A DNA stretch of 37,829 bases from a virus, in the IMG/VR virus record IMGVR_UViG_3300045988_187455, positions 1 to 37,829 of that record. One strand, given 5' to 3'. The notes beneath the pieces are model-generated. The model was given only the letters and a program-made list of their open reading frames with translations. It made no database searches and had not been told where the DNA came from. This document shows positions 5,853 through 37,829 of the stretch, piece after piece. The translations under genes and the position numbers were made by a program. The stretch's first letter is position 1; each line of letters opens with the position of its first letter.

Positions 5853-6204
5853 AGGAAAACTAGATGGATTGAATGAATATATTAATGCTTGCAGAACAAA
5901 TCGTTACAAAGGAGCAGAAATGAAGAAAAAGAATGAGCGATTAGTTATGGCTTATATCTTACAGGCAGTAAACTTTGGCGAGGTTTACGAAGTTAAAAAA
6001 TACCCAATTAAATTAAATATTAATTGGTATGAACCTAATTCAAGGCGTGATGTTGATAACGTAACATTTGCAACTAAATTCATTCAAGATTCATTAGTTA
6101 GAACAGGAATTTTAGAAGATGATTCAAGGAAATACATTAATCAAGTGAATCATTCAGTATTTACGGATAAACAAAATCCTAGGATAGAGGTAGAAATCAT
6201 ATGA
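5836..6204 (+). CDS. rusA: RusA-like Holliday junction resolvase (ATA start)
   Basis: SRRDVDNVTFATKFIQDSLVRTGILEDDS catalytic-Asp region; conserved N-terminus KFVIKGKLDGLNEY lies upstream of the first canonical start (TTG 5869); AAGGTGGA + 5 nt + ATA 5836. Confidence 0.7.
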   Translation: MKFVIKGKLDGLNEYINACRTNRYKGAEMKKKNERLVMAYILQAVNFGEVYEVKKYPIKLNINWYEPNSRRDVDNVTFATKFIQDSLVRTGILEDDSRKYINQVNHSVFTDKQNPRIEVEII

Positions 6205-6560: not shown

Positions 6561-7287
6561 AATTATTAAGAACAAAAACTATACAGTGATGAGCAATACA
6601 CATTTAAAAGATAAGCGCTTATCACTAAAAGCAATAGGCTTGTTAAGTATTGTTCTTGGTTTACCGGAAGATTGGCATTATACAGTAAATGGATTAGTTG
6701 GAATTGTAAAAGATGGGAAAGATTCAGTTGAAAGTGCAATTAAGGAATTAAAAAAGAATGGATATTTAAGAGTAGAGAAGATATATCCTAATGAAAATAG
6801 TAATAGGATTCAATATCAATATACATTCTTTGAGAATCCTCAAGAGGTGGATTTTCAACCCCTTGAAAATCAAGGTATTGAAAAGCAAGGTGTTGAAACT
6901 CAAGTACTTGAAAACCCCTACACTTATAAAGATACTAATAAACCAAATACTAATAAATTAAATACTAATACACAAAGTAAACATAAATACGGTGAATATT
7001 CACACGTGTTACTTACAGATAAAGAACACACACACCTATTAGATTTATATGGTAACTCATTAGATGAGCATATAAAGATATTAGATGAGTATATTGAAAC
7101 GAGTGGAAAGAAATACAAGAACCATTCACTAGTGATTCAGAAGTGGGTACATGATGAATGGATGAAAAGAAATAAAGATAAGCCTATCACACTTGATTCA
7201 AAGTTTTATGCAGAGCAGAACACAAAGACGGATAAAGAGGTACAAGATGAATTTAATAGGCTTAGAGCACAACTATTTGGAGCATAG
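6547..7287 (+). CDS. DnaD-like replication organiser / winged-helix replication protein (ATA start)
   Basis: KNKNYTVMSNTHLKDKRLSLKAIGLLSIVLGLPEDWHYTVNGL N-terminal domain; TTG 6532 and GTG 6538 lie on or inside the SD GGAGGTG (6534-6540); ATA 6547 is 6 nt after it. Confidence 0.65.
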   Translation: MAVIRIIKNKNYTVMSNTHLKDKRLSLKAIGLLSIVLGLPEDWHYTVNGLVGIVKDGKDSVESAIKELKKNGYLRVEKIYPNENSNRIQYQYTFFENPQEVDFQPLENQGIEKQGVETQVLENPYTYKDTNKPNTNKLNTNTQSKHKYGEYSHVLLTDKEHTHLLDLYGNSLDEHIKILDEYIETSGKKYKNHSLVIQKWVHDEWMKRNKDKPITLDSKFYAEQNTKTDKEVQDEFNRLRAQLFGA

Positions 7288-7303
7288 AAAGGTGATTAAA
7301 TAA

Positions 7304-7921
7304 ATGGATTACATGATGTTAGAACCGTACACAAATGAATTTAAAGGGTTTGTGAGCGATAAACAAGTCAAAGAAGAATTAAATCTAACAGGACTACAGT
7401 TTAAAAGATTCGTGCAATTCTCAAAGCTTTATAAAGGTTTCTTATTAATTGAGGATGAATCAGAAGAGAAATCAAGTAGGATTCAAGAAATGAGTCAATT
7501 GGTATGCGAAGGAAGATATGGACGTAAATATTACGTAACTACATTTGGAAATGCTTATACAGTTAAAGATGGAAAAAAAGCACCTTTAAAAGTTGTGAAA
7601 AAAGGTTTAAACACTTATCAAGTTAAGATAAATGGTAGATATAAATCAATGTCTAGATTGATGTATAAAGCTTTCATAGGTGATTTAAAGAACAATGAAG
7701 TTACATACTTTGACGGTGGAAAAACAATAAATCACATTAAAAAAAGCAGTAAGTCAGAACATTGTAGAAGGTACGCAAATTTTAAAAAAGTACAGGTTGG
7801 AGATAAGGTTTACAACAATGTACAAGAATGTGCAAATGATATTGGATATAGCTATTGGACTATACAAGAAAAGCTATATGGAAGAATACAGAATGATATA
7901 GGTGTTAGATACGTTGATTAA
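7304..7921 (+). CDS. NUMOD4/homing-endonuclease-like DNA-binding protein (tentative, possibly degenerate)
   Basis: YYVTTFGNAYTV..YQVKINGRYKSMSRLMYKAFIG resembles NUMOD4; C-terminal VYNNVQECANDIGYSYWTI resembles a NUMOD1-like HTH; no clear HNH motif. Confidence 0.4.
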   Translation: MDYMMLEPYTNEFKGFVSDKQVKEELNLTGLQFKRFVQFSKLYKGFLLIEDESEEKSSRIQEMSQLVCEGRYGRKYYVTTFGNAYTVKDGKKAPLKVVKKGLNTYQVKINGRYKSMSRLMYKAFIGDLKNNEVTYFDGGKTINHIKKSSKSEHCRRYANFKKVQVGDKVYNNVQECANDIGYSYWTIQEKLYGRIQNDIGVRYVD

Positions 7922-7933
7922 GGAGGATTAAGA

Positions 7934-8173
7934 GTGATATTAAAGAATGTATTTATTAACTGCATTTATTTATTAGTTGGCTCATTTGCATTGATGGTTT
8001 CAATTGTCATCATACAAGTTATAATTGAGCACATTATAGAAGTAATTAGAAGATTTAGAAAAGAACGAACATTGATGAGAATTATTAGATTGCGTGAAAA
8101 AGAAATTTTGAAATGTACAAATGCAGATGAATTAAATGAATTAATGAAAAGGATTGAGCATAAACATGAGTAA
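7934..8173 (+). CDS. Small membrane protein
   Basis: GTG after TAAGGAGGA; N-terminal TM (YLLVGSFALMVSIVIIQVII). Confidence 0.55.
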   Translation: MILKNVFINCIYLLVGSFALMVSIVIIQVIIEHIIEVIRRFRKERTLMRIIRLREKEILKCTNADELNELMKRIEHKHE

Positions 8174-14518: not shown

Positions 14519-14594
14519 AGCAGGATAGAGCAGTAGTAGCTCACTAGTCTTATTAGCTAGAGGTCGAACGGTGCAATTCCTTCTCCTGCAACCA
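14519..14594 (+). tRNA. tRNA-like gene, anticodon UAU (reads AUA), initiator-like features, encoded CCA
   Basis: Manual cloverleaf: AGCAGGA/TCCTGCA acceptor with A1xA72 mismatch, GAGC-AGTAGTA-GCTC D arm, CTAGT-CTTATTA-GCTAG anticodon arm, AGGTC variable loop, GAA(C)GG-TGCAATT-CCTTC T arm with one bulge, A73, CCA. Confidence 0.55.
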
Positions 14595-15244: not shown

Positions 15245-16006
15245 TTGAAAATATTTCTAAGCGCATTAGAGGTGCAACGAGGTAAGAAATCATTATGTAG
15301 AATCTTAGTCGAGCAAGGCATTCAAATGAAATATAACCTTATGTCTTATTACTACCTAAGAAAGAATTTAAATGACGCATATTTCATAAAAGAGAACAGT
15401 CAATTAGTAATTATAGACAGTGGAGCACATAGTTTCCAAAAGGGTACAAAAGTTGATTGGGTAGAATATACCAAGCAATACGCAGAATTTATCAAAGAAT
15501 TTGATGAGGACAAGGTTGTAGGATATTTTGAAATGGATGTAGACAACATCTTAGGTTATGAAAAGGTATTAGAGTTAAGAAAAATATTAGAATCTGTATC
15601 AGATAAGATTATTCCTGTATGGCATAAGAATAGAGGAATACAAGACTTCAAAGATATGTGTAAGAAATATCAAGGTAAGGTTGTAGCAATTACAGGATTC
15701 AAGAATGAAGATATTAAAGATGAACAATACATTATGTTTTTGAAATATGCAAAGAAATATAATTGCAAGGTTCATTGCCTTGGTATGACAAGAAAAAAGA
15801 TATTAGATAAAGTTCCATTTGATTATTGTGATTCTAGTTCATGGGTACAACAATCAGTTTATGGGCGTATCAATGGGGTGGGCAAAGTATCAAGAGAAAT
15901 GTCAAGGACAAATAGAGAACAAGTAATGATAGAGAATTATAAGCAATTTATGCAAATGCAAGAAAAATATGAACAAAAATGGAGGAACGTGAATAAACAG
16001 AAATAA
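15245..16006 (+). CDS. TGT-superfamily DpdA-like 7-deazaguanine DNA transglycosylase (tentative)
   Basis: IIDSGAHSF, KVHCLGMT, FDYCDSSSW motifs recalled as DpdA/TGT-like; TTG start directly after a stop with no SD; see start anomaly finding. Confidence 0.5.
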   Translation: MKIFLSALEVQRGKKSLCRILVEQGIQMKYNLMSYYYLRKNLNDAYFIKENSQLVIIDSGAHSFQKGTKVDWVEYTKQYAEFIKEFDEDKVVGYFEMDVDNILGYEKVLELRKILESVSDKIIPVWHKNRGIQDFKDMCKKYQGKVVAITGFKNEDIKDEQYIMFLKYAKKYNCKVHCLGMTRKKILDKVPFDYCDSSSWVQQSVYGRINGVGKVSREMSRTNREQVMIENYKQFMQMQEKYEQKWRNVNKQK

Positions 16007-31761: not shown

Positions 31762-32630
31762 ACATTAACAAAGTAAGAGTTATCGTCCGTAGGGATGATG
31801 GCAAAGAGTTTGAAATTGACAACCAAAAAAGATGGAAGATTCCTTCTAGTAGTGGTTTAGATGGATTTGATTATGTAGCACCTTCATATACAACACAAGA
31901 CAATGCATTCGGAAACGGTGCAAGATTAATCGGTTCACGTATTCCAACGAAAGAAAGAAGCGTGAAAGCTACCTTTAAAGGTTCGCTAGAAGAAAAAAGA
32001 GAAGAAAGGGAGAAGCTACGGCGCTTCTTCCAATATTCTCATATATTTGACGTTATTGTTGAGTACATGGGAGAAAAGAAATATTGCAGAGGAAGGTTAT
32101 ATGCGTATAGCTTGCCTACTGCTAACATCTACAAAGATTTAGAGCTTAACTTTACAATCCTATGCACACAACCTTTATTGCTTTCATTTGATGATTTCGC
32201 AAGGAATATTGCAGAAATCGGTGAAGGTTTAGCGTTCAACTTTGAAATACCGGAAACAGGCGTGAACTTTGGAACATTCACATTCGCTAGAGAAATCTAT
32301 ATTGATAATCAAGGTGATACAGAAACATACTGTAGAGCCGTTATTGAAGCATTTGGAGAGGTAACAAATCCAAAGCTATTTAACAAGGATAAATATATTC
32401 GTGTATTAGATACGCTACACAATGGTGATGTATTAGAAATTGATTTAGTTTCTGAGCCTATTTCGATTAAAAAGAATGGTGTGAATTGTATCGGCAAAGT
32501 TGATAGAACATCATCATTCAACGATATGACGATTCAGTTAGGTGAGAATATCATAGGATATACGGCAGACAGTGGAGATACGAACCTAGCTTGCATGGTT
32601 TACTATAATGAAAGGTATTTAGGTTTATAA
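31758..32630 (+). CDS. Distal tail protein Dit (ATA start)
   Basis: 68 codons open upstream of GTG 31962; GGAGGTG + 7 nt + ATA 31758 overlapping the TMP stop (ATAG). Confidence 0.75.
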   Translation: MDINKVRVIVRRDDGKEFEIDNQKRWKIPSSSGLDGFDYVAPSYTTQDNAFGNGARLIGSRIPTKERSVKATFKGSLEEKREEREKLRRFFQYSHIFDVIVEYMGEKKYCRGRLYAYSLPTANIYKDLELNFTILCTQPLLLSFDDFARNIAEIGEGLAFNFEIPETGVNFGTFTFAREIYIDNQGDTETYCRAVIEAFGEVTNPKLFNKDKYIRVLDTLHNGDVLEIDLVSEPISIKKNGVNCIGKVDRTSSFNDMTIQLGENIIGYTADSGDTNLACMVYYNERYLGL

Positions 32631-32631
32631 T

Positions 32632-33645
32632 ATGTCTTATTTTGGATTAGATAAAGATTTCAATATCGTTACACATCTAGCGCCTTATAACGTGCAGTGG
32701 AATCGGCGGTATTATGAAACAGGAGATTTCGAGATTTATATTGATATAGGACAGTATTCAAGCGATATTAAATACATTTATTCTACTGAGGATAAAGAGT
32801 TAGGAATTGTTGATATACCACATTATTCGGTTTCAAATAACACGAAACAAATGTTGCTAAAAGGTTCGTTTTTTGAAAAGATATTAGCAGATGATTGTAT
32901 TTATCCTACATTCTCAAGTAGCGGAAAAATTGTTGATGTGGTCAAAAAGCTATTAGACAAGTATTGCTCATGGGAAATGGGGTATAGATATGATGAATCC
33001 ATTACCGATAGAGTAGAATTTCAAGAAACAGGAGCAAACCTTGACGAGAAACTTTATGAGCTATTCTATCCGTTAGAATTGTCTTTCCGTATAGAATATG
33101 ACTATGTGTCAAGTACGTTCACATTCGTGTTGTATCGAGGTCGTGACTTGACTCAGAACAATGTAGATGGAAACAACTTTGTCACATTCTCTACAGAGTT
33201 TGGAAACATTGAAGAACCGGACGTTATGATTGATTCTAGTAAATACAAGAACTATGCAATTATTTGTGGTGAAGGGCAATCAGAAGAGCGTATTTATGTA
33301 GAATATGACGCTAGAATAGATAAGAATGAAAGAATCAAAAAGTTGTTCGTAGACGCACGTTCTGAACGTATGGGGGATGATATTACACTTGATGAATATA
33401 AAAAGGTACTGATTCAAAAAGGAATTGAAAAACTAGCAGATTGTAAGATTAAAGAGAATGTGAATTTCGGATTGAATACTGATTCATACGAATACAAGGT
33501 TGATTATGATTTAGGTGATAAGGTGGATGTGATTGTTGCAGAAATTGGTTTAGTAATGACGGCGAGAATTAGAAATATATTCGAGGTCATTAAGAGTGGA
33601 TATAGAACCTTAGAATTAGAGGTTGACAATTTAAAAATCATGTAA
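32632..33645 (+). CDS. Tail-associated protein Tal (N-terminal gp27-like domain only)
   Basis: 337 aa following Dit. Confidence 0.65.
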   Translation: MSYFGLDKDFNIVTHLAPYNVQWNRRYYETGDFEIYIDIGQYSSDIKYIYSTEDKELGIVDIPHYSVSNNTKQMLLKGSFFEKILADDCIYPTFSSSGKIVDVVKKLLDKYCSWEMGYRYDESITDRVEFQETGANLDEKLYELFYPLELSFRIEYDYVSSTFTFVLYRGRDLTQNNVDGNNFVTFSTEFGNIEEPDVMIDSSKYKNYAIICGEGQSEERIYVEYDARIDKNERIKKLFVDARSERMGDDITLDEYKKVLIQKGIEKLADCKIKENVNFGLNTDSYEYKVDYDLGDKVDVIVAEIGLVMTARIRNIFEVIKSGYRTLELEVDNLKIM

Positions 33646-33657
33646 GGAGTGAATTTA

Positions 33658-34158
33658 ATAGAAAAGAACAATGGAGGATTTAAACAAATAACGAGAAGTA
33701 TGTATTTTCTAGACAAGATGAATGCAATGGGTGGTGTAGCCGTTGCCGTATTAACATACGTATTAGGTGAGCATTGGTATTTATTTGCGTTCTTCTTATT
33801 TATGAATGTAGTTGATTACATTACAGGGTGCATGAAGTCGGCGATTAATCACAAAATCAATAGCAATAAAGGATGGATTGGAGTCCTTAAAAAGCTAGGC
33901 TATTGGATTATGATTGTCGTTGCGTTCACATTCAGTGCATTCTTGGTAGAGATTGGAAAAATGCTAGGAATTGATTTCCATGTAACTACATTATTAGGAT
34001 GGTTCGTATTGGCTTCTTTGTGCATTAATGAAGTGCGTAGCATTATTGAGAACCTTGTACAATGTGGATATAGCGTACCTAGTGTATTGACTAAAGGTTT
34101 GGAAGTAGCGGATAAAATCGTTAACGAAGACAATGACGAATCAAGTACCTTGGAATAA
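33658..34158 (+). CDS. Holin (multi-TM; probable ATA start)
   Basis: TM helices and DYITGCMKSAINHKINSNKGWIGVLKK motif; GTG 33649 overlaps the SD AAGGAG; ATA 33658 is 8 nt after the SD; a second GGAGG + 10 nt + ATA at 33688; ATG 33700 lacks an SD. Confidence 0.7.
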   Translation: MEKNNGGFKQITRSMYFLDKMNAMGGVAVAVLTYVLGEHWYLFAFFLFMNVVDYITGCMKSAINHKINSNKGWIGVLKKLGYWIMIVVAFTFSAFLVEIGKMLGIDFHVTTLLGWFVLASLCINEVRSIIENLVQCGYSVPSVLTKGLEVADKIVNEDNDESSTLE

Positions 34159-34399
34159 GATTATTTTAGAAGAGTTTATTAATCTAGCTTTATTAACTAA
34201 AGATGAAGAAATGATTCTAAGAACAAGAATATACGGATGGACAGTTAGAGAACAAGCCGACAGATTGAATATGAGTGTTTCTAGTGTAAATAGAATCATC
34301 AAAAGAATAAAGAACAAGTATGATGAAGTAGAGAAGTATAGCGCAATCCTACCACCGAGAAAAAGCAGTGAAAAAGAAACGTATCTAGATAAGAATTAA
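34133..34399 (+). CDS. Sigma-70 region 4-like HTH regulator
   Basis: LTKDEEMILRTRIYGWTVREQADRLNMSVSSVNRIIKRIKNKYD; overlaps the holin 3' end by 26 nt. Confidence 0.55.
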   Translation: MTNQVPWNKIILEEFINLALLTKDEEMILRTRIYGWTVREQADRLNMSVSSVNRIIKRIKNKYDEVEKYSAILPPRKSSEKETYLDKN

Positions 34400-34423
34400 G
34401 AGGTTGAAAAACCTCTTTTTTTT
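34398..34423 (+). terminator. Rho-independent terminator
   Basis: AAGAGGTT-GAAA-AACCTCTT + TTTTTT. Confidence 0.7.
34407..34419 (+). repeat. 13-bp direct repeat, left copy (AAAAACCTCTTTT)
   Basis: Identical 13-mer at 36719-36731; the two copies bracket the accessory cassette. Confidence 0.6.
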
Positions 34424-34501
34424 GACATTTATCTGATATTAATGTGAAAACAAACTGAGACTGCCTATGAATATAATTAGGAGTGTAAAGAGGTGAGTAA
34501 A

Positions 34502-34927
34502 ATGTATAATCCAATCAATGACAGAATTAATAATTTAATGAATCAAAAGCAGATGATTGAATCGCAGTTACAAAACATTCAACAGTTAGCAAATATTCCA
34601 CCTATTAATATTAACAACCAAATCACGCCTAACATGGGATTAAATGATTTTAATGGTAAGTGGGTCAATAATGAACAAGAAGCAAGGAATATGATGGTGA
34701 ATGGTTTGCCTAGTATTATGCTAGATAGAAATGATTCAGTATTTTATATGAAATCATTAGACGGCAGTTTCAAGAAATACAGATTCCAAGAAGAAACAGA
34801 GCCAAAGAAAGACAACATAGAACAACGCTTAGACAAGCTAGAAGCTATGATATTAGGTCTAGCAAACGGAAGTAATATAAATGCAAAGGCAGAGAAAGAA
34901 ACGCCTAGAAAGGAGCTTAAAGCGTGA
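34502..34927 (+). CDS. Hypothetical Q/N-rich protein (cassette gene 1)
   Basis: AGAGGTG + 6 nt + ATG 34502. Confidence 0.6.
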   Translation: MYNPINDRINNLMNQKQMIESQLQNIQQLANIPPININNQITPNMGLNDFNGKWVNNEQEARNMMVNGLPSIMLDRNDSVFYMKSLDGSFKKYRFQEETEPKKDNIEQRLDKLEAMILGLANGSNINAKAEKETPRKELKA

Positions 34928-35133
34928 ATCCTTTAATGAATATGATGAACCCTCAACAGATGTTGTTGGGTATGTTACAACAAAGAAATCCACAAGCATT
35001 TAATCAAGTACAACAATTAATGCAGAGTGGGCAGAATCCCCAAGTATTGCTAAGTAATATGATGGGGAATTTAACGCCACAACAGAAGCAACAATTTGAA
35101 AATGTGGCTAGTCAATATGGGCTAAAACGCTAA
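34924..35133 (+). CDS. Small Gln-rich protein with NPQ repeats (cassette gene 2)
   Basis: AAGGAGC + 7 nt + GTG 34924. Confidence 0.55.
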   Translation: MNPLMNMMNPQQMLLGMLQQRNPQAFNQVQQLMQSGQNPQVLLSNMMGNLTPQQKQQFENVASQYGLKR

Positions 35134-35157
35134 TTGCGTTGAAAGGAGGAAATATAA

Positions 35158-35769
35158 ATGGAAAGCATGAATGGTATTCAACCAATGTACGATTTAGCAG
35201 ACAGAAACAACAATGAATTTGGTGGTGGATATTGGATTTGGATTATCCTTTTATTCTTACTTTTTGGTGGAAATTGGGGTAACAATGGCAACCTACAGAA
35301 TGATGAATTAATGAATCAAGAATTTATTAAGCGTGATTTATTTAATACAAATCAAAATGTATCTAGCCAAGGTTTCCAAAATTCAAGAGATATTCTAGAA
35401 AGCCGATACACAACTCAATTAGGCTTGCAGAATCTAGGACAACAGAATCAAGAATGTTGTTGTGCAACGCAAAGAGCGATTGATGGAGTAAATACACAGA
35501 GCTTTAAGAATACGTGTGATATTACCACTGCAATTCACTCAGAAGGCGAAGCAACAAGAGCATTGATTAATGCTAACACAATGCAAGAATTGCGTGATAA
35601 ATTAGCAGACAGAGATAGAGATTTATTAACTGCAAACTTCCAATTAAGCCAACAGGCGCAATCTGCTAATATCATTAACACATTGCAACCAACGCCAAAA
35701 CCTGCATATCTTACTTGCTCACCTTATTATGCATACAATATGACAGGTTGTGGATGTAACCAAATCTAG
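35158..35769 (+). CDS. Single-pass membrane protein with Cys-rich ectodomain (cassette gene 3)
   Basis: AAAGGAGGA SD; TM YWIWIILLFLLFGG; ECCCATQ, TCD, CSPYY, GCGCNQI cysteines. Confidence 0.7.
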   Translation: MESMNGIQPMYDLADRNNNEFGGGYWIWIILLFLLFGGNWGNNGNLQNDELMNQEFIKRDLFNTNQNVSSQGFQNSRDILESRYTTQLGLQNLGQQNQECCCATQRAIDGVNTQSFKNTCDITTAIHSEGEATRALINANTMQELRDKLADRDRDLLTANFQLSQQAQSANIINTLQPTPKPAYLTCSPYYAYNMTGCGCNQI

Positions 35770-35804
35770 CTCGAAAGAGATTAGGCAATAGCCTTTGGAT
35801 TATA

Positions 35805-35834
35805 GGGTAGTCGAAAGGCTACCCATTTATTTTA
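35805..35834 (+). terminator. Rho-independent terminator inside the cassette
   Basis: GGGTAGTC-GAAA-GGCTACCC followed by a T-rich run. Confidence 0.6.
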
Positions 35835-35852
35835 TATAGGAGGAAAAGAAAA

Positions 35853-36272
35853 ATGATTAATAGTATAGCAACGGCAGTACAAACAGTAGCAAATGGACAA
35901 AATGTATTATTTCCAACGGATAGGGTAAGAACAAAATCATGTCAATGTGCTTGTAAAGGTTGGCTTGCTCATGATGTAGGAAGTGGACTATTTACATTGA
36001 CGAAACAAGGAATTTATGAAGTAGAATATACGGCAGACATCACAAGCGCAACGGTAGGAGTCGCTTCTTTAGAATTAGAACAGAATGGAGAAGCAGTAGG
36101 AGGAACAGAATCTCTATATAATGTAGCTACTGCAAGTGCATATGGAAATGTTAGTGGAGCTACATTGATTCAAGTACCTTGTGGAGCTTCTTACACAATT
36201 ACGCTAGGAAATAACAGTGGCTTAGATTTATCTGTTCAGAATGCAAATATCATCATTAAGAAATTAGCGTAG
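35853..36272 (+). CDS. BclA C-terminal-domain-like (C1q/TNF-like) protein without collagen region (cassette gene 4)
   Basis: GIYEVEYTADITSA..LELEQNGEAVGGT..ANIIIKKLA parallels the BclA CTD as recalled (GFYKITV..IQVNGVPVPGT..ASIIIEKVA). Confidence 0.5.
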   Translation: MINSIATAVQTVANGQNVLFPTDRVRTKSCQCACKGWLAHDVGSGLFTLTKQGIYEVEYTADITSATVGVASLELEQNGEAVGGTESLYNVATASAYGNVSGATLIQVPCGASYTITLGNNSGLDLSVQNANIIIKKLA

Positions 36273-36279
36273 GTGTATC

Positions 36280-36717
36280 ATGCAAGAGGTTAGAAAACGA
36301 AATCTAGACCTCTTAACGGAAGCAATGAGAGGACTAGAAAAAGGATACAATGATTTAGATTTTAGAGTTATGAGCCAAGCTTTAGACAACATCAAAGACA
36401 TTGATACAATACTAGCTATGAGTGATGGAAGAGCGACTATAAACACATTAAGAACAAATGACACAAATATTGAAGGAACAGAAATTGATGACAATATCGC
36501 ATTGATGAATAGCCATTTTAGGAAATACATAGAAGCGAAAAAAGAATATCGAAAAGATAACAATGAAATCGATAAGCGAAATTCTATTCGTGAGTTAGAA
36601 GCTTTTTTGAATGCTATGTATGGAATCTTAGAAGAAATGAAAACGTCTAGCGACTTTCAAGAAGAAAGAGAAATGGTCAGAGATAAATTAAGAGAAATGT
36701 TCTCAGTATATCAGTGA
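36280..36717 (+). CDS. Helical hypothetical protein (cassette gene 5)
   Basis: TAGGTG SD, ATG 36280. Confidence 0.6.
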   Translation: MQEVRKRNLDLLTEAMRGLEKGYNDLDFRVMSQALDNIKDIDTILAMSDGRATINTLRTNDTNIEGTEIDDNIALMNSHFRKYIEAKKEYRKDNNEIDKRNSIRELEAFLNAMYGILEEMKTSSDFQEEREMVRDKLREMFSVYQ

Positions 36718-36718
36718 T

Positions 36719-36731
36719 AAAAACCTCTTTT
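36719..36731 (+). repeat. 13-bp direct repeat, right copy (AAAAACCTCTTTT)
   Basis: Identical to 34407-34419 but without the 5' arm of the hairpin. Confidence 0.6.
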
Positions 36732-36734
36732 ATG

Positions 36735-36743
36735 TGCTATAAT
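36735..36743 (+). promoter_or_regulatory. Extended -10 element TGcTATAAT upstream of the endolysin
   Basis: Perfect TGnTATAAT match 27 nt before ATA 36770. Confidence 0.4.
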
Positions 36744-36769
36744 TGGTACATAAAGGAGGATTTTTTTTA

Positions 36770-37528
36770 ATAAATTATCAAAATTTCAAAAATGCCGTAT
36801 TAGGCAAAGCTTTCGATGTTGATGGCTTTTATGGTGCTCAGTGTTGGGACGGATTCGCAAAGTATATGATTGATTTAGGATATAGAGCAATTCATTGTAC
36901 TACGAGTCAATTTGCAAAAGACATTTGGAACAATCGAAAAGCAAATGGTATCTTAAACTACTGTAATGAAGTCACAGTTATGCAAGCCGGAGATATTGCA
37001 GTATTTAAAGAAGTAGCATTATGGACTCCATACTCACACGTGGCAATTTTTGACCACGACGCAGGCGGTGGATACGGTTGGTTCTTAGGACAGAATCAAG
37101 GCGGAAAGAATGGAGCGTTTACACTTTGTAAATTGCCATACAGTGCCACATTCGATACTGCATTTAGACCTAAATGTTTTGCAAATGCACAGACTGCTAA
37201 ACCTAAACCACAACCAAAAGAAGCGATTGACCAAATCTTACACGTAGGTAGCTATGTAACATCTGTACAGATGAAGATTGGAAATCAAGGATTAAAGAAG
37301 ATTAATAACGATACTTGCGCCTATTTATCACAGTTAGGTGGTTGGTTCCCATTGTCTATGATTACAAAAGTTCGAGGTTCGGATGGATATAATGACAATG
37401 TGTTGCATACTACAAATGCGGTGGTATACGTAGACCGAGTTCGTGTTGATGAAATTAATATTCCGAAAAACCTTGCAAAAATCGGTGGAATTTGGGTTAG
37501 TGCTACACCTTTGATTGAAGTAGCATAA
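36770..37528 (+). CDS. Endolysin: N-terminal CHAP domain plus C-terminal SH3b-like binding domain (ATA start)
   Basis: DVDGFYGAQCWDGF (catalytic Cys) and YSHVAIF (His); the track TTG 36743 lies upstream of the SD; AAAGGAGGA + 9 nt + ATA 36770 gives N-terminus NYQNFKNAVLGKAFDVDG. Confidence 0.8.
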   Translation: MNYQNFKNAVLGKAFDVDGFYGAQCWDGFAKYMIDLGYRAIHCTTSQFAKDIWNNRKANGILNYCNEVTVMQAGDIAVFKEVALWTPYSHVAIFDHDAGGGYGWFLGQNQGGKNGAFTLCKLPYSATFDTAFRPKCFANAQTAKPKPQPKEAIDQILHVGSYVTSVQMKIGNQGLKKINNDTCAYLSQLGGWFPLSMITKVRGSDGYNDNVLHTTNAVVYVDRVRVDEINIPKNLAKIGGIWVSATPLIEVA

Positions 37529-37579: not shown

Positions 37580-37613
37580 GAGCCTACGTATTACACGTAG
37601 GTTCTTTTTTTTA
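37580..37613 (+). terminator. Rho-independent terminator after the endolysin
   Basis: GAGCCTACGT / ACGTAGGTTC stem then a T9 run. Confidence 0.7.
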
Positions 37614-37630
37614 TTTTCCTAAAAAAGCTC

Positions 37631-37659
37631 TTTACATGTATATACATGTATGCTATACT
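37631..37659 (+). promoter_or_regulatory. Sigma-A-type promoter with embedded 18-bp perfect palindrome
   Basis: -35 TTTACA 37631-37636, 17-nt spacer, -10 TATACT 37654-37659; TACATGTATATACATGTA at 37633-37650. Confidence 0.6.
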
Positions 37660-37709
37660 ATATATGTGGTCAGATAAAGGCAAGGAATTAAAAGAAAGGA
37701 GGATAGTCA

Positions 37710-37829
37710 ATGAGCCACAAAAAAAGCAATCACAAAGCAGAGACGGTTAACATCTACTTAGAGATTGCTAAAAACGTTATTGAAATTCTCGCATTTGCAA
37801 TAACGATTATAAAGAGCTTAGGGAATTAA
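37710..37829 (+). CDS. 39-aa peptide with basic N-terminus and hydrophobic C-terminal helix (moron; candidate small membrane peptide or toxin)
   Basis: AAAGAAAGGAGGA + 6 nt + ATG; MSHKKSNHKAETVNIYLEIAKNVIEILAFAITIIKSLGN; stop is the last codon of the window. Confidence 0.5.
   Translation: MSHKKSNHKAETVNIYLEIAKNVIEILAFAITIIKSLGN

Follow-up and report, generated by a model that had tools for sequence, protein, structure and literature searches.

A conserved, regulator-led accessory operon between the holin and endolysin genes of a gut prophage and its possible role at the end of infection

Introduction

Morons of lambdoid and other temperate phages are autonomous promoter-gene-terminator units that lie among conserved late genes, a concept of Hendrix and colleagues. 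A module that shares several of these properties separates the holin gene from the endolysin gene in the viral genome IMGVR_UViG_3300045988_187455, here called the window and analysed over its whole length of 37,829 nucleotides (nt). Like morons, the module lies between genes that are adjacent elsewhere, is bounded by terminators, is dispensable and polymorphic, and takes variable positions in the late region. Unlike them, it has six genes, a dedicated regulator, a fixed architecture across phage families and host phyla, and a composition typical of its surroundings; its regulator also appears wired to late transcription. With regard to the promoter of a moron, the module shows three terminator-like hairpins and only a TATAAT hexamer without a -35 element. 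The reading proposed here, with a probability of about 0.4, is that of a conserved, self-contained accessory operon which is switched on very late by a helix-turn-helix (HTH) protein and forms an envelope complex aiding lysis or egress.

Several other systems offer partial parallels. Lysis accessories of Gram-positive phages include XhlA and XepA of PBSX and YomS of SPbeta; the T4 holin T acts with the antiholins RI and RIII. Like these accessories, the module proteins are non-enzymatic, probably in part membrane-anchored and encoded within or beside the holin-endolysin genes, and T4 T shares with the third cassette protein, P3, the layout of a single membrane segment near the N terminus followed by a large C-terminal domain with Cys. 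Unlike them, the module has no detected relation in sequence or fold and is not always found beside lysis genes. The fourth protein, P4, resembles BclA of the Bacillus anthracis exosporium nap above the Pfam threshold and across the whole domain. It differs from full BclA in being a bare domain, devoid of collagen-like GXX repeats and N-terminal exosporium targeting, and some of the hosts do not sporulate.

At the level of gene control, a parallel is lambda Q with tR', where an intrinsic terminator likewise stands immediately behind the gene of a small DNA-binding regulator and ahead of a gated operon. Here, by contrast, the terminator precedes a candidate promoter and the gated genes form an accessory operon rather than the lysis genes. 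The clostridial PaLoc (TcdR, TcdE, TcdL) contains a phage-derived holin, a sigma factor and a lysin remnant, with non-lysis genes between holin and lysin (PMC11344133). The module is similar to PaLoc and to UviA/UviB of BCN5 in its holin family, its sigma-related regulator and the non-lysis genes set between holin and lysin. In contrast to PaLoc, its regulator consists of region 4 only, its cargo is unrelated to toxins or bacteriocins, and it is not tied to the holin family.

The Module and Its Gene Products

The window is a complete-looking temperate siphovirus, with an integrase gene at 1-1125 and nearly all genes on the + strand, which also carries the holin, module and endolysin features described below. 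Behind the tape-measure gene come Dit (ending at 32630), a Gp37-type Tal of 337 amino acids (aa; 32632-33645) and a Phage_holin_4_1 holin, with no tail-fibre gene between Tal and holin. The endolysin gene (36770-37528) begins 2.6 kb past the holin, and six genes, not five, lie in between. All five open reading frames (ORFs) that an earlier note on this DNA had counted there are present at their coordinates, but a gene for a small HTH protein had been overlooked. As this gene belongs to the module and is located upstream of the terminator, the 5' boundary that had been drawn at 34400 cannot be kept. Distant homologues of the holin (58-63% identity) are placed about 55 nt 5' of their own endolysin, and because they directly adjoin it, the split pair of the window lineage is regarded as the derived state. 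The phage is a gut prophage, apparently complete and with a working-looking endolysin.

The first module gene (34133-34399) encodes the HTH protein of 88 aa, and its start overlaps the 3' end of the holin gene by 26 nt. The protein is sigma-70 region-4-like, as indicated by the Pfam profiles Sigma70_r4_2 (E 2.3e-5) and HTH_23 (E 3.3e-6) and by a match to 'Positive control sigma-like factor' (E 6.7e-6). The similarity is confined to region 4, so that a full sigma factor of the TcdR/UviA type, with regions 2 and 4, is not present. Phage_antitermQ, the lambda Q type, did not match the protein of the window, and 4 of 16 homologues matched it weakly (best E 3e-4).

The five genes that follow the regulator are called P1 to P5. 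P1 (34502-34927, 141 aa) consists of an N-terminal Q/N-rich helix, an invariant PPININN motif, a small beta domain (residues ~50-100) and a C-terminal helix. Its start is the ATG at 34502, while the GTG at 34493 falls within the Shine-Dalgarno (SD) sequence. In the AlphaFold check suggested earlier, P1 is moderately folded (AlphaFold2, pLDDT 71) as two helices around the beta domain. No fold match to this model was found in the PDB with Foldseek, and BFVD gave only uncharacterised siphovirus, podovirus and myovirus proteins; tblastn with P1 against INPHARED, which holds no close phage genome, was without a match. P2 (34924-35133, 69 aa) begins with a GTG that overlaps the P1 stop codon and is rich in Gln (23%), Asn (13%) and Met (13%). 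Proteins that shield hydrophobic segments typically have such a Met/Gln-rich composition, which is no more than a lead here.

P3 (35158-35769, 203 aa; phrog_16490) has a Gly/Trp-flanked hydrophobic segment at residues 21-39, an invariant CCC at 100-102, a long helix of about 60 residues (113-175) and a Pro/Cys-rich tail. It had been described as a Cys-rich single-pass membrane protein. The seven Cys and the one hydrophobic segment are there, but the segment is borderline (KD19 1.50), and the AlphaFold2 model of P3 is poor (pLDDT 48). The family comprises 5256 homologues and corresponds to no Pfam family. P4 (35853-36272, 139 aa, four Cys; phrog_20016) is similar to the C-terminal domain of BclA, a jelly roll of the TNF/C1q type, and lacks collagen repeats. 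The likeness to BclA noted earlier is borne out by PF18573 (BclA_C), which P4 passes with 40.6 bits against a gathering cut-off of 38; residues 3-139 align with profile positions 5-128 of 128, and most P4 homologues carry the same domain. In the PDB, the five top matches of the P4 family profile are all BclA, at weak E values of 0.01-0.1, while the single P4 sequence has none. P5 (36280-36717, 145 aa) belongs to no recognisable family. It is the least conserved member, replaced elsewhere by other families, and shares an 'ALDNIKD' motif with CPD1_042.

Only the HTH protein (sigma region 4) and P4 (BclA_C) match families of known function. Searches of P1, P2, P3 and P5 against Pfam, NCBIfam, PHROGs and PADLOC returned only PHROGs of unknown function or noise, and P3 and P5 had no match in sequence and profile searches of the PDB. 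The best hit of any cassette protein to the anti-phage defence profiles of PADLOC had an E of 0.004 and covered short stretches only. No toxin or bacteriocin family of Pfam, NCBIfam or PHROGs was matched by P1-P5. Inspection by eye, without a predictor, revealed no N-terminal signal peptide in P1, P2, P4 or P5, and by eye no N-terminal lipobox was found in any of the five.

Where present, all six module genes evolve under purifying selection, of a strength similar to that seen for tail and holin genes. The pN/pS ratios are 0.10 for the HTH gene, 0.08 for P1, 0.16 for P2, 0.04 for both P3 and P4, and 0.07 for P5, compared with 0.07 for Tal and 0.08 for the holin. The GC content is 0.31-0.38 across 34100-36800 and in the same range in the flanks, hence the composition is not foreign. 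As stated previously for P1-P5, the module genes use canonical start codons. None of the six begins with ATA, compared with 11 of the 28 other late genes (39%, p ~0.05), a statistically weak contrast that is no more than suggestive; many core late genes also use ATG.

Regulatory Elements of the Module

Three kinds of elements occupy the short region between the HTH gene and P1. The first is the strong terminator already proposed at 34398-34423, which was found as a terminator-like hairpin with a T8 run at 34398-34424, directly 3' of the HTH stop codon (-14.2 kcal/mol, z -3.6). The second is a pair of direct repeats phased by 11 bp (TTGACATTTAT and CTGATATTAAT, 34422-34443), a candidate operator to which the HTH protein may bind. 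The TTGACA reported at 34422-34427 is part of these repeats, and in most relatives TTGACA occurs twice within them. The third is a TATAAT hexamer at 34472-34477, 24 nt 5' of the P1 ATG, which resembles a -10 element at the level of the consensus and has no -35 partner; it is kept in all ten close relatives. Inside the cassette, the internal terminator described between P3 and P4 is likewise in place at 35805-35834, as a hairpin of eight pairs, five of them G-C, with a T-rich tail.

A similar layout is found far beyond the close relatives. In about 13 very divergent loci, the HTH stop codon is followed by a G+C-rich hairpin with a T-run, then by a -10-like hexamer and then by P1. Phased repeats stand at the equivalent place in two of the divergent loci, L014 and L021 (L numbers denote the loci compared), as GAGTATTA twice and (G/T)AGTAT three times. 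Since this order recurs across divergent lineages, the design of regulator, terminator, promoter and operon is a property of the module and not the mark of an insertion boundary.

Conservation and Position of the Module Across Phages

The relatives were collected at two distances. Ten loci were fetched that carry the exact P4 protein, which is indexed in 583 blocks of the assembly collection, and a divergent set of about 27 loci was examined by local iterative search. The order Dit-Tal-holin-HTH-P1-P2-P3-P4-P5 is kept in 10 of 10 fetched loci, while the endolysin enzymatic modules differ. In the divergent set, a small HTH gene, P1, in most cases P2, P3 and a P4-like gene follow one another and are succeeded by variable partners. 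The P2 counterparts, of 55-90 aa, are found between P1 and P3 at most loci. Small HTH genes precede P1 in 15 of the divergent loci, where they overlap or abut the preceding late gene, and 12 of 16 HTH homologues match Sigma70_r4.

The host range is broad. Many uncultured gut phages carry adjacent P3 and P4 homologues; Clostridium perfringens phages have P3 homologues as well, and Butyrivibrio phage Ceridwen has a P4 homologue with a P3 neighbour. Contigs with the module have been binned to Solobacterium, Megasphaera and Bacteroidales, and most hosts given by labels of metagenome-assembled genomes are monoderm Firmicutes. In crAss-like phages, only the P3 core is kept: a P3-like gene, followed by small partner genes, stands a short distance of a few genes from the holin. 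No description of the module was found in a literature search.

The position of the module varies. It stands before an r1t-type holin and CHAP lysin in L014, L020 and L021, and after holin and lysin in L017. In L030 and Dulem virus 33 it separates the lysin from the integrase; L041, L044 and L046 have it immediately 3' of Tal or fibre genes, and L043, L045 and L049 between the tape measure and the genes of the baseplate. In 26 loci, the genes within 3 kb upstream belong mostly to endolysin and holin families, and those downstream are host genes, early genes, integrase or baseplate genes. The holin that accompanies it elsewhere may be of the r1t type, Holin_LLH or another, or there is none near. 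In L030 (6510-8330), the P3 homologue is split at the invariant CCC by about 1.2 kb containing an ORF for a GIY-YIG endonuclease (7076-7894). A group I intron match at 7735-7961 scores 31 bits (E 1e-5), which is under the Rfam gathering score. An endonuclease gene also lies between a P2-like ORF and P3 in Dulem virus 33.

Further proteins recur around the module. One family of 150-210 aa with the motif N-x-DGT-x-G-x-HW ... MMYSDY, and a second with the motif GLQGFKR-x-HE, which is vaguely reminiscent of ferritins, are located inside extended versions of it, downstream or upstream of P3 (L023, L026-L028, L030, L032, L035, L043, L045, L049 and L118; L012, L022, L037, L041 and L044). A 169-aa protein of L017 there has a weak DUF7841 match on record and is presumed to belong to the DGT/HW family. 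Small proteins with an N-terminal membrane segment and a coiled coil are often encoded directly 5' of the HTH gene (L014, 5420-5936; L030, 3726-3998; L037, 6210-6879; L045, 3005-3205; L049, 6328-6549). By eye they recall the holin-like layout of BhlA/XhlA, without a family match, and may be an optional member of the module. In one of 26 divergent loci, genes just 5' of the module match STAS, HATPase_c_2 (SpoIIAB-like) and Sigma70_r2 and look like a phage-borne anti-sigma/sigma set.

Loss of the Cassette in Relatives

Presence and absence of the cassette were surveyed in 29 close relatives found through the holin. The cassette is kept in 26, and most of it is gone in the remaining three, as a result of three independent deletions through micro-homology. 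All three left gene remnants behind, and the holin ORF and the endolysin leader survive in each. In L062, position 34152 is joined to 36170 via the 15-nt repeat GA(A/T)TCAAGTACCTTG, and a second deletion of 282 bp lies within P5; in the window, the substrate of the first deletion is GAATCAAGTACCTTG at 34138-34152, with its partner at 36167-36181 in P4. In L071, a homology of about 10 nt (GAAGAAATG) links 34214 in the HTH gene with 36631 in P5. In L081, the end of the holin is followed by a 43-nt fragment of P1 and then by the 3' end of P5. The tRNA gene of this phage group persists on the contigs of L071 and L081. Further deletions are recorded in fusion proteins, namely HTH-P4 (P0255), P1-P4 (P0158) and P0180.

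The module is thus very probably mobile and dispensable, yet selected. The earlier proposal of an inserted, moron-like cassette stands in part, as far as mobility, dispensability and variable position are concerned. The polymorphism it predicted among relatives exists as well, in 3 of 29, without being bounded by the 13-mers. Such natural cassette-minus variants are ready-made controls.

A Possible Role at the End of Infection

The arrangement suggests the following course of events. The HTH protein would be made as the last gene of the late (holin) transcript, while the intrinsic terminator directly behind its gene would insulate the downstream unit. The protein would then activate this unit from the -10-only promoter preceded by the 11-bp-phased repeats or, less likely, let the polymerase read through the regulator's own terminator. 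Under either route, P1-P5 would appear as a delayed, 'very late' class. P3 would probably span the membrane once and continue into a long coiled coil and a Cys/Pro-rich tail, P4 would be a trimer-type domain of the BclA/C1q kind, and P1 and the Met/Gln-rich P2 would be their conserved partners. Together, they might assemble an envelope-associated complex that assists lysis or egress as infection ends, without being part of the holin-endolysin machine. The module would have entered the lysis cassette between holin and endolysin, from which illegitimate recombination has repeatedly removed it, and the endolysin gene behind it would be uncoupled by an SD-hiding terminator hairpin with an internal promoter.

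The two parts of this reading differ in strength. Late expression gated by the HTH protein is slightly favoured by the gene order, whereas the envelope-associated role in lysis or egress is put forward tentatively. The latter is preferred because the regulator ends the late transcript with a terminator behind it, because the module is usually proximal to lysis genes, and because P3 of L030 is interrupted at CCC by a group I intron together with a GIY-YIG gene. Crass-like phages, which have the P3 core, and tail operons, some of which contain the full module, are settings that suit a function confined to the lysogen poorly.

A number of observations weigh against a role in lysis or egress. The late-late timing is suggested by the gene arrangement, and a repressor role would be just as conceivable for the HTH protein. 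The module is often found at the prophage end, by integrase or host genes, which is the classical place of lysogenic conversion, and its canonical starts set it apart from the late genes with ATA. The P3 segment and model are as weak as described above. None of the members has homology to known lysis proteins in searches of Pfam, PHROGs, NCBIfam, PADLOC and the PDB. In L043, L045 and L049 the module sits amid tail genes, not lysis genes, and its loss in 3 of 29 relatives means that it is not needed for lysis as such.

Alternative Explanations

The most serious alternative, though an unlikely one, is a moron for lysogenic conversion or superinfection exclusion, in which P1-P5 would be expressed in the lysogen from their own promoter, without dependence on the late genes or the ATA/tRNA system, and P3 and P4 would alter the surface or block phage. 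Terminators on either side of the unit and its -10 element agree with this, but the regulator appears to be co-transcribed with the late genes, and the terminator comes after the regulator, not before it. The unit is dispensable and often deleted, and it frequently stands past the lysis genes, ahead of the integrase or the prophage end, although it is also found amid tail operons. A moron could explain the canonical starts of all six genes, as opposed to 39% ATA in the other late genes, and the presence of a probable membrane protein together with a lectin-like TNF fold; the composition, however, is not foreign and PADLOC gave no match. The Crassvirales are generally regarded as non-temperate. 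P3-like genes are nevertheless found in crAss-like phages, with no integrase annotated in the record stretches examined. Phage group I introns typically reside in conserved genes of lytic growth, and the group I intron and homing endonuclease within P3 thus speak against expression in the lysogen.

Two further explanations are improbable. According to the first, the holin would export leaderless cargo, as in clostridial PaLoc and UviAB/BCN5. The holin belongs to PF05105 and to TIGR01593, 'toxin secretion/phage lysis holin', and a sigma-like regulator adjoins it, although this regulator is a region 4 of only 88 aa and not a sigma factor of the TcdR type. PaLoc unites a sigma factor, a holin-like gene, toxins and a lysin or lysin remnant (PMC11344133), while the window is a complete phage with a working-looking endolysin and without a toxin- or bacteriocin-like protein. 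P1, P2, P4 and P5 show no signal peptide by eye, as expected of such cargo, but the module travels without this holin family or far from any holin.

According to the second, the module would encode a virion component, in which the TNF-like head of P4 and P3/P1 would serve in receptor binding or decoration. Fibre tips commonly carry TNF/C1q-like heads. Behind Dit and the 337-aa Tal, the window lacks an obvious receptor-binding protein, and in L041, L044 and L046 the module comes straight after Tal or fibre genes, but in many phages it is found past the lysis genes, behind terminators, and L014 has a 654-aa fibre-like gene in addition to it. The label 'spike protein/glycoprotein' given to P3-like genes in crAss records is a mere automatic annotation of the coiled-coil type. 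P4 is devoid of an attachment domain, the hydrophobic segment of P3 resembles an anchor, and the deletions remove the module while the lysis genes and the tRNA are kept in contigs that are otherwise phage-sized.

Other candidates were rejected. A spore or exosporium function, as had been suggested from the surface-like proteins, is unlikely to be general, given that the host range takes in non-sporulating bacteria: the module is found in contigs binned to Solobacterium, Megasphaera and Bacteroidales and in a Butyrivibrio phage, and its P3 core in crAss-like phages. A two-component spanin was considered for the i-spanin-like layout of P3, but there is no lipoprotein partner and the hosts are mostly monoderm. 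A defence system had no PADLOC match, and a foreign origin by composition is contradicted by the uniform GC content.

The 13-bp Repeat

The 13-mer AAAAACCTCTTTT occurs at 34407-34419 and 36719-36731. These are the sole two copies in the window, even with one mismatch (0.21 expected). Both copies were located as reported, but the second had been described as lacking a 5' arm, whereas it is itself the 5' arm of a hairpin at 36719-36768, in the endolysin leader. The first copy forms the loop and the 3' arm of the HTH terminator. The likeness arises because both copies are A-tract/CCUCUU/U-tract parts of hairpins, which pair with AAGAGG or AAGGAGG, and the repeat is best explained as the convergence of two functional hairpins, with a contribution of chance.

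It had been read as a recombination scar at the ends of an inserted cassette, either in this form or as a target-site duplication, on the grounds that two exact copies stand near both ends of the five ORFs with no third in the window; this is highly improbable, as exact direct repeats of at least 13 nt are abundant (98 pairs, compared with 48 +/- 5 in first-order Markov simulations), the structural contexts differ, the true 5' end of the module, the HTH gene, lies upstream of copy 1, all three natural deletions went through other micro-homologies and left remnants, and other module lineages have terminators at both ends that are unrelated in sequence. The copies are not kept identical in relatives either: only 5 of 10 loci retain both exact 13-mers, copy 2 varies among 24 leader variants, and the drifted forms (AAAAACCAC..., AAAGACCTC..., AAATATCCTCTTTATG and AAAAAACTCTTTT) show that the two drift independently. 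The cassette-less junction with a single 13-mer that a scar would leave was not seen, as none of the three cassette-minus relatives has a clean empty site.

The Flanking Lysis Genes

The endolysin gene (36770-37528) encodes a CHAP domain, identified by its profile, and a C-terminal domain, and starts with ATA. It is preceded by a leader hairpin of about 20 bp with a U8 run (36719-36768; -24.3 kcal/mol, z -6.4 against shuffled sequences). The 5' arm of this hairpin is copy 2 of the 13-mer, the top and loop are TGCTATAAT (36735-36743), and the 3' arm is the SD AAAGGAGG (36752-36759). The extended -10 seen earlier before the endolysin is this TGCTATAAT, which also forms the top of the hairpin. 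The SD of the endolysin is therefore sequestered in the 3' arm, with the U8 run next and then the ATA. The hairpin is kept in 32 loci with 24 sequence variants, one of which has a compensatory indel (UUUU/AAAG to UUU/AAG). No variant differs in TGCTATAAT or the ATA, while the U-run ranges from 5 to 8.

A transcript reading in from upstream would terminate at the leader hairpin or carry a buried SD. A transcript that begins about 7 nt past the -10, near 36750, loses the 5' arm and is predicted to be unstructured. As read-in RNA would terminate or hide the SD while the short transcript is open, the endolysin would presumably be translated only from the transcript of its own promoter, from the ATA. 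Such a combination of an SD-sequestering terminator, an internal promoter and a non-canonical start would be a tidy example of a lethal gene kept safe by several layers of control.

The ATA start of the endolysin, part of the earlier view that both lysis genes use this codon, is well supported. An SD of GGAGG lies 7-10 nt upstream, and the first canonical in-frame start comes only after the catalytic Cys of the CHAP domain. An upstream TTG (36743) was rejected as the start. It lies inside the hairpin loop and is out of frame in the T6/T7 variants; because the T-run between SD and ATA varies in length (T5 to T8 in relatives), the TTG is out of frame in many of them.

The enzymatic modules of the endolysin are swapped among close relatives just past the conserved leader and the first codons (ATA AAT/GAT TAT). 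The versions include CHAP-only proteins of 252 aa (261 aa as called), CHAP with GH25, and longer forms (L001, L006, L063, L070, L071 and L078), and among the same relatives also an unrelated lysin behind a small acidic ORF. At 3' of the endolysin, a strong terminator (37580-37604) with a T-run is followed by a promoter-like TTTACA-17-TATACT (37631-37659), within the last part of the window (37580-37829). A small ORF with a hydrophobic tail extends from 37710 to the window end, the classical moron position at a prophage end, and relatives carry several tiny ORFs 3' of the endolysin.

The holin (33658-34158) matches Phage_holin_4_1 (Pfam PF05105) with an E of 2.4e-32 and NCBIfam TIGR01593 with an E of 7.7e-21 (74.4 bits, cut-off 40.2). 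Its ATA start, the other half of that earlier view, is plausible. AAGGAG is found 8 nt 5' of it, and a 3-nt indel downstream in L008 is in frame. Two candidate ATA starts ten codons apart are present in 33644-33690, with AAGGAG before 33658 and GGAGG before 33688, reminiscent of the dual-start motifs of holin/antiholin pairs.

ATA Starts and an Initiator-Like tRNA

Non-canonical starts are not restricted to the lysis genes. In at least 11 late genes, the stop-to-stop frame opens with an in-frame ATA that follows a strong SD at a distance of 6-10 nt, at positions 15993, 18155, 19555, 20999, 21860, 25182, 27714, 29182, 31758, 33658 and 36770 (also 6547). They include genes of portal, capsid and major-tail size, the tape measure, Dit, the holin and the endolysin. 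Public assemblies mis-start such genes; the endolysin is called with 183 or 221 aa, and Dit and the tape measure are shortened. In L014 (~5950-6177) and L021 (~250-509), the HTH genes have no canonical start after the SD (GGCGGTGG) and likely begin with ATT or ATC, and given these starts, non-canonical initiation may extend beyond the phage group of the window.

A tRNA gene is located at 14519-14594 (+), just 5' of the late genes. It scores 48 bits with Rfam, over 14519-14591, and is missed by ARAGORN. According to the cmscan alignment, its anticodon loop CUUAUUA contains the anticodon UAU, which reads AUA. The 1:72 mismatch and A11:U24 are hallmarks of bacterial initiator tRNAs. In this tRNA, 1:72 is an A x A mismatch, A11:U24 is present, position 73 is A (A73) and the CCA is encoded; it is devoid of the three anticodon-stem G-C pairs of initiators, and position 37 is U. 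Its sequence is almost invariant in 29 related viral contigs, while the flanks vary. In a literature search, no description of a natural AUA-reading initiator tRNA in phages was found. This tRNA(UAU) may license the ATA starts of the phage. If it licenses AUA initiation, the holin and endolysin would be doubly locked and the module exempt.

Implications

The value of the module depends on which explanation is correct. If it is an ordinary moron expressed in the lysogen, the gain would be smaller, namely a new and very common cassette of lysogenic conversion. A wider and doubtful generalisation of the lysis/egress reading is that the P3/P4 core represents an unrecognised, widespread system, from siphoviruses of Firmicutes to Crassvirales, in which a regulator-timed complex of a membrane-anchored coiled coil and a TNF-like domain would act in the last minutes of infection, as a new auxiliary to lysis or egress, and which in this phage would, by its canonical starts, escape a second layer of control, the tRNA-licensed AUA initiation of holin, endolysin and major structural genes. 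Its role could be, for example, the control of lysis timing or the protection of the progeny from debris. If this is true, thousands of gut phages, crAss-like phages included, would carry the core of an unannotated module under tail-like selection, which in the Firmicutes phages takes the form of an operon for several proteins with a fixed order of regulator, terminator and promoter. The module would then be a testable candidate for a missing end-of-cycle function in gut Firmicutes and Bacteroidota phages, and a unit for annotation pipelines.

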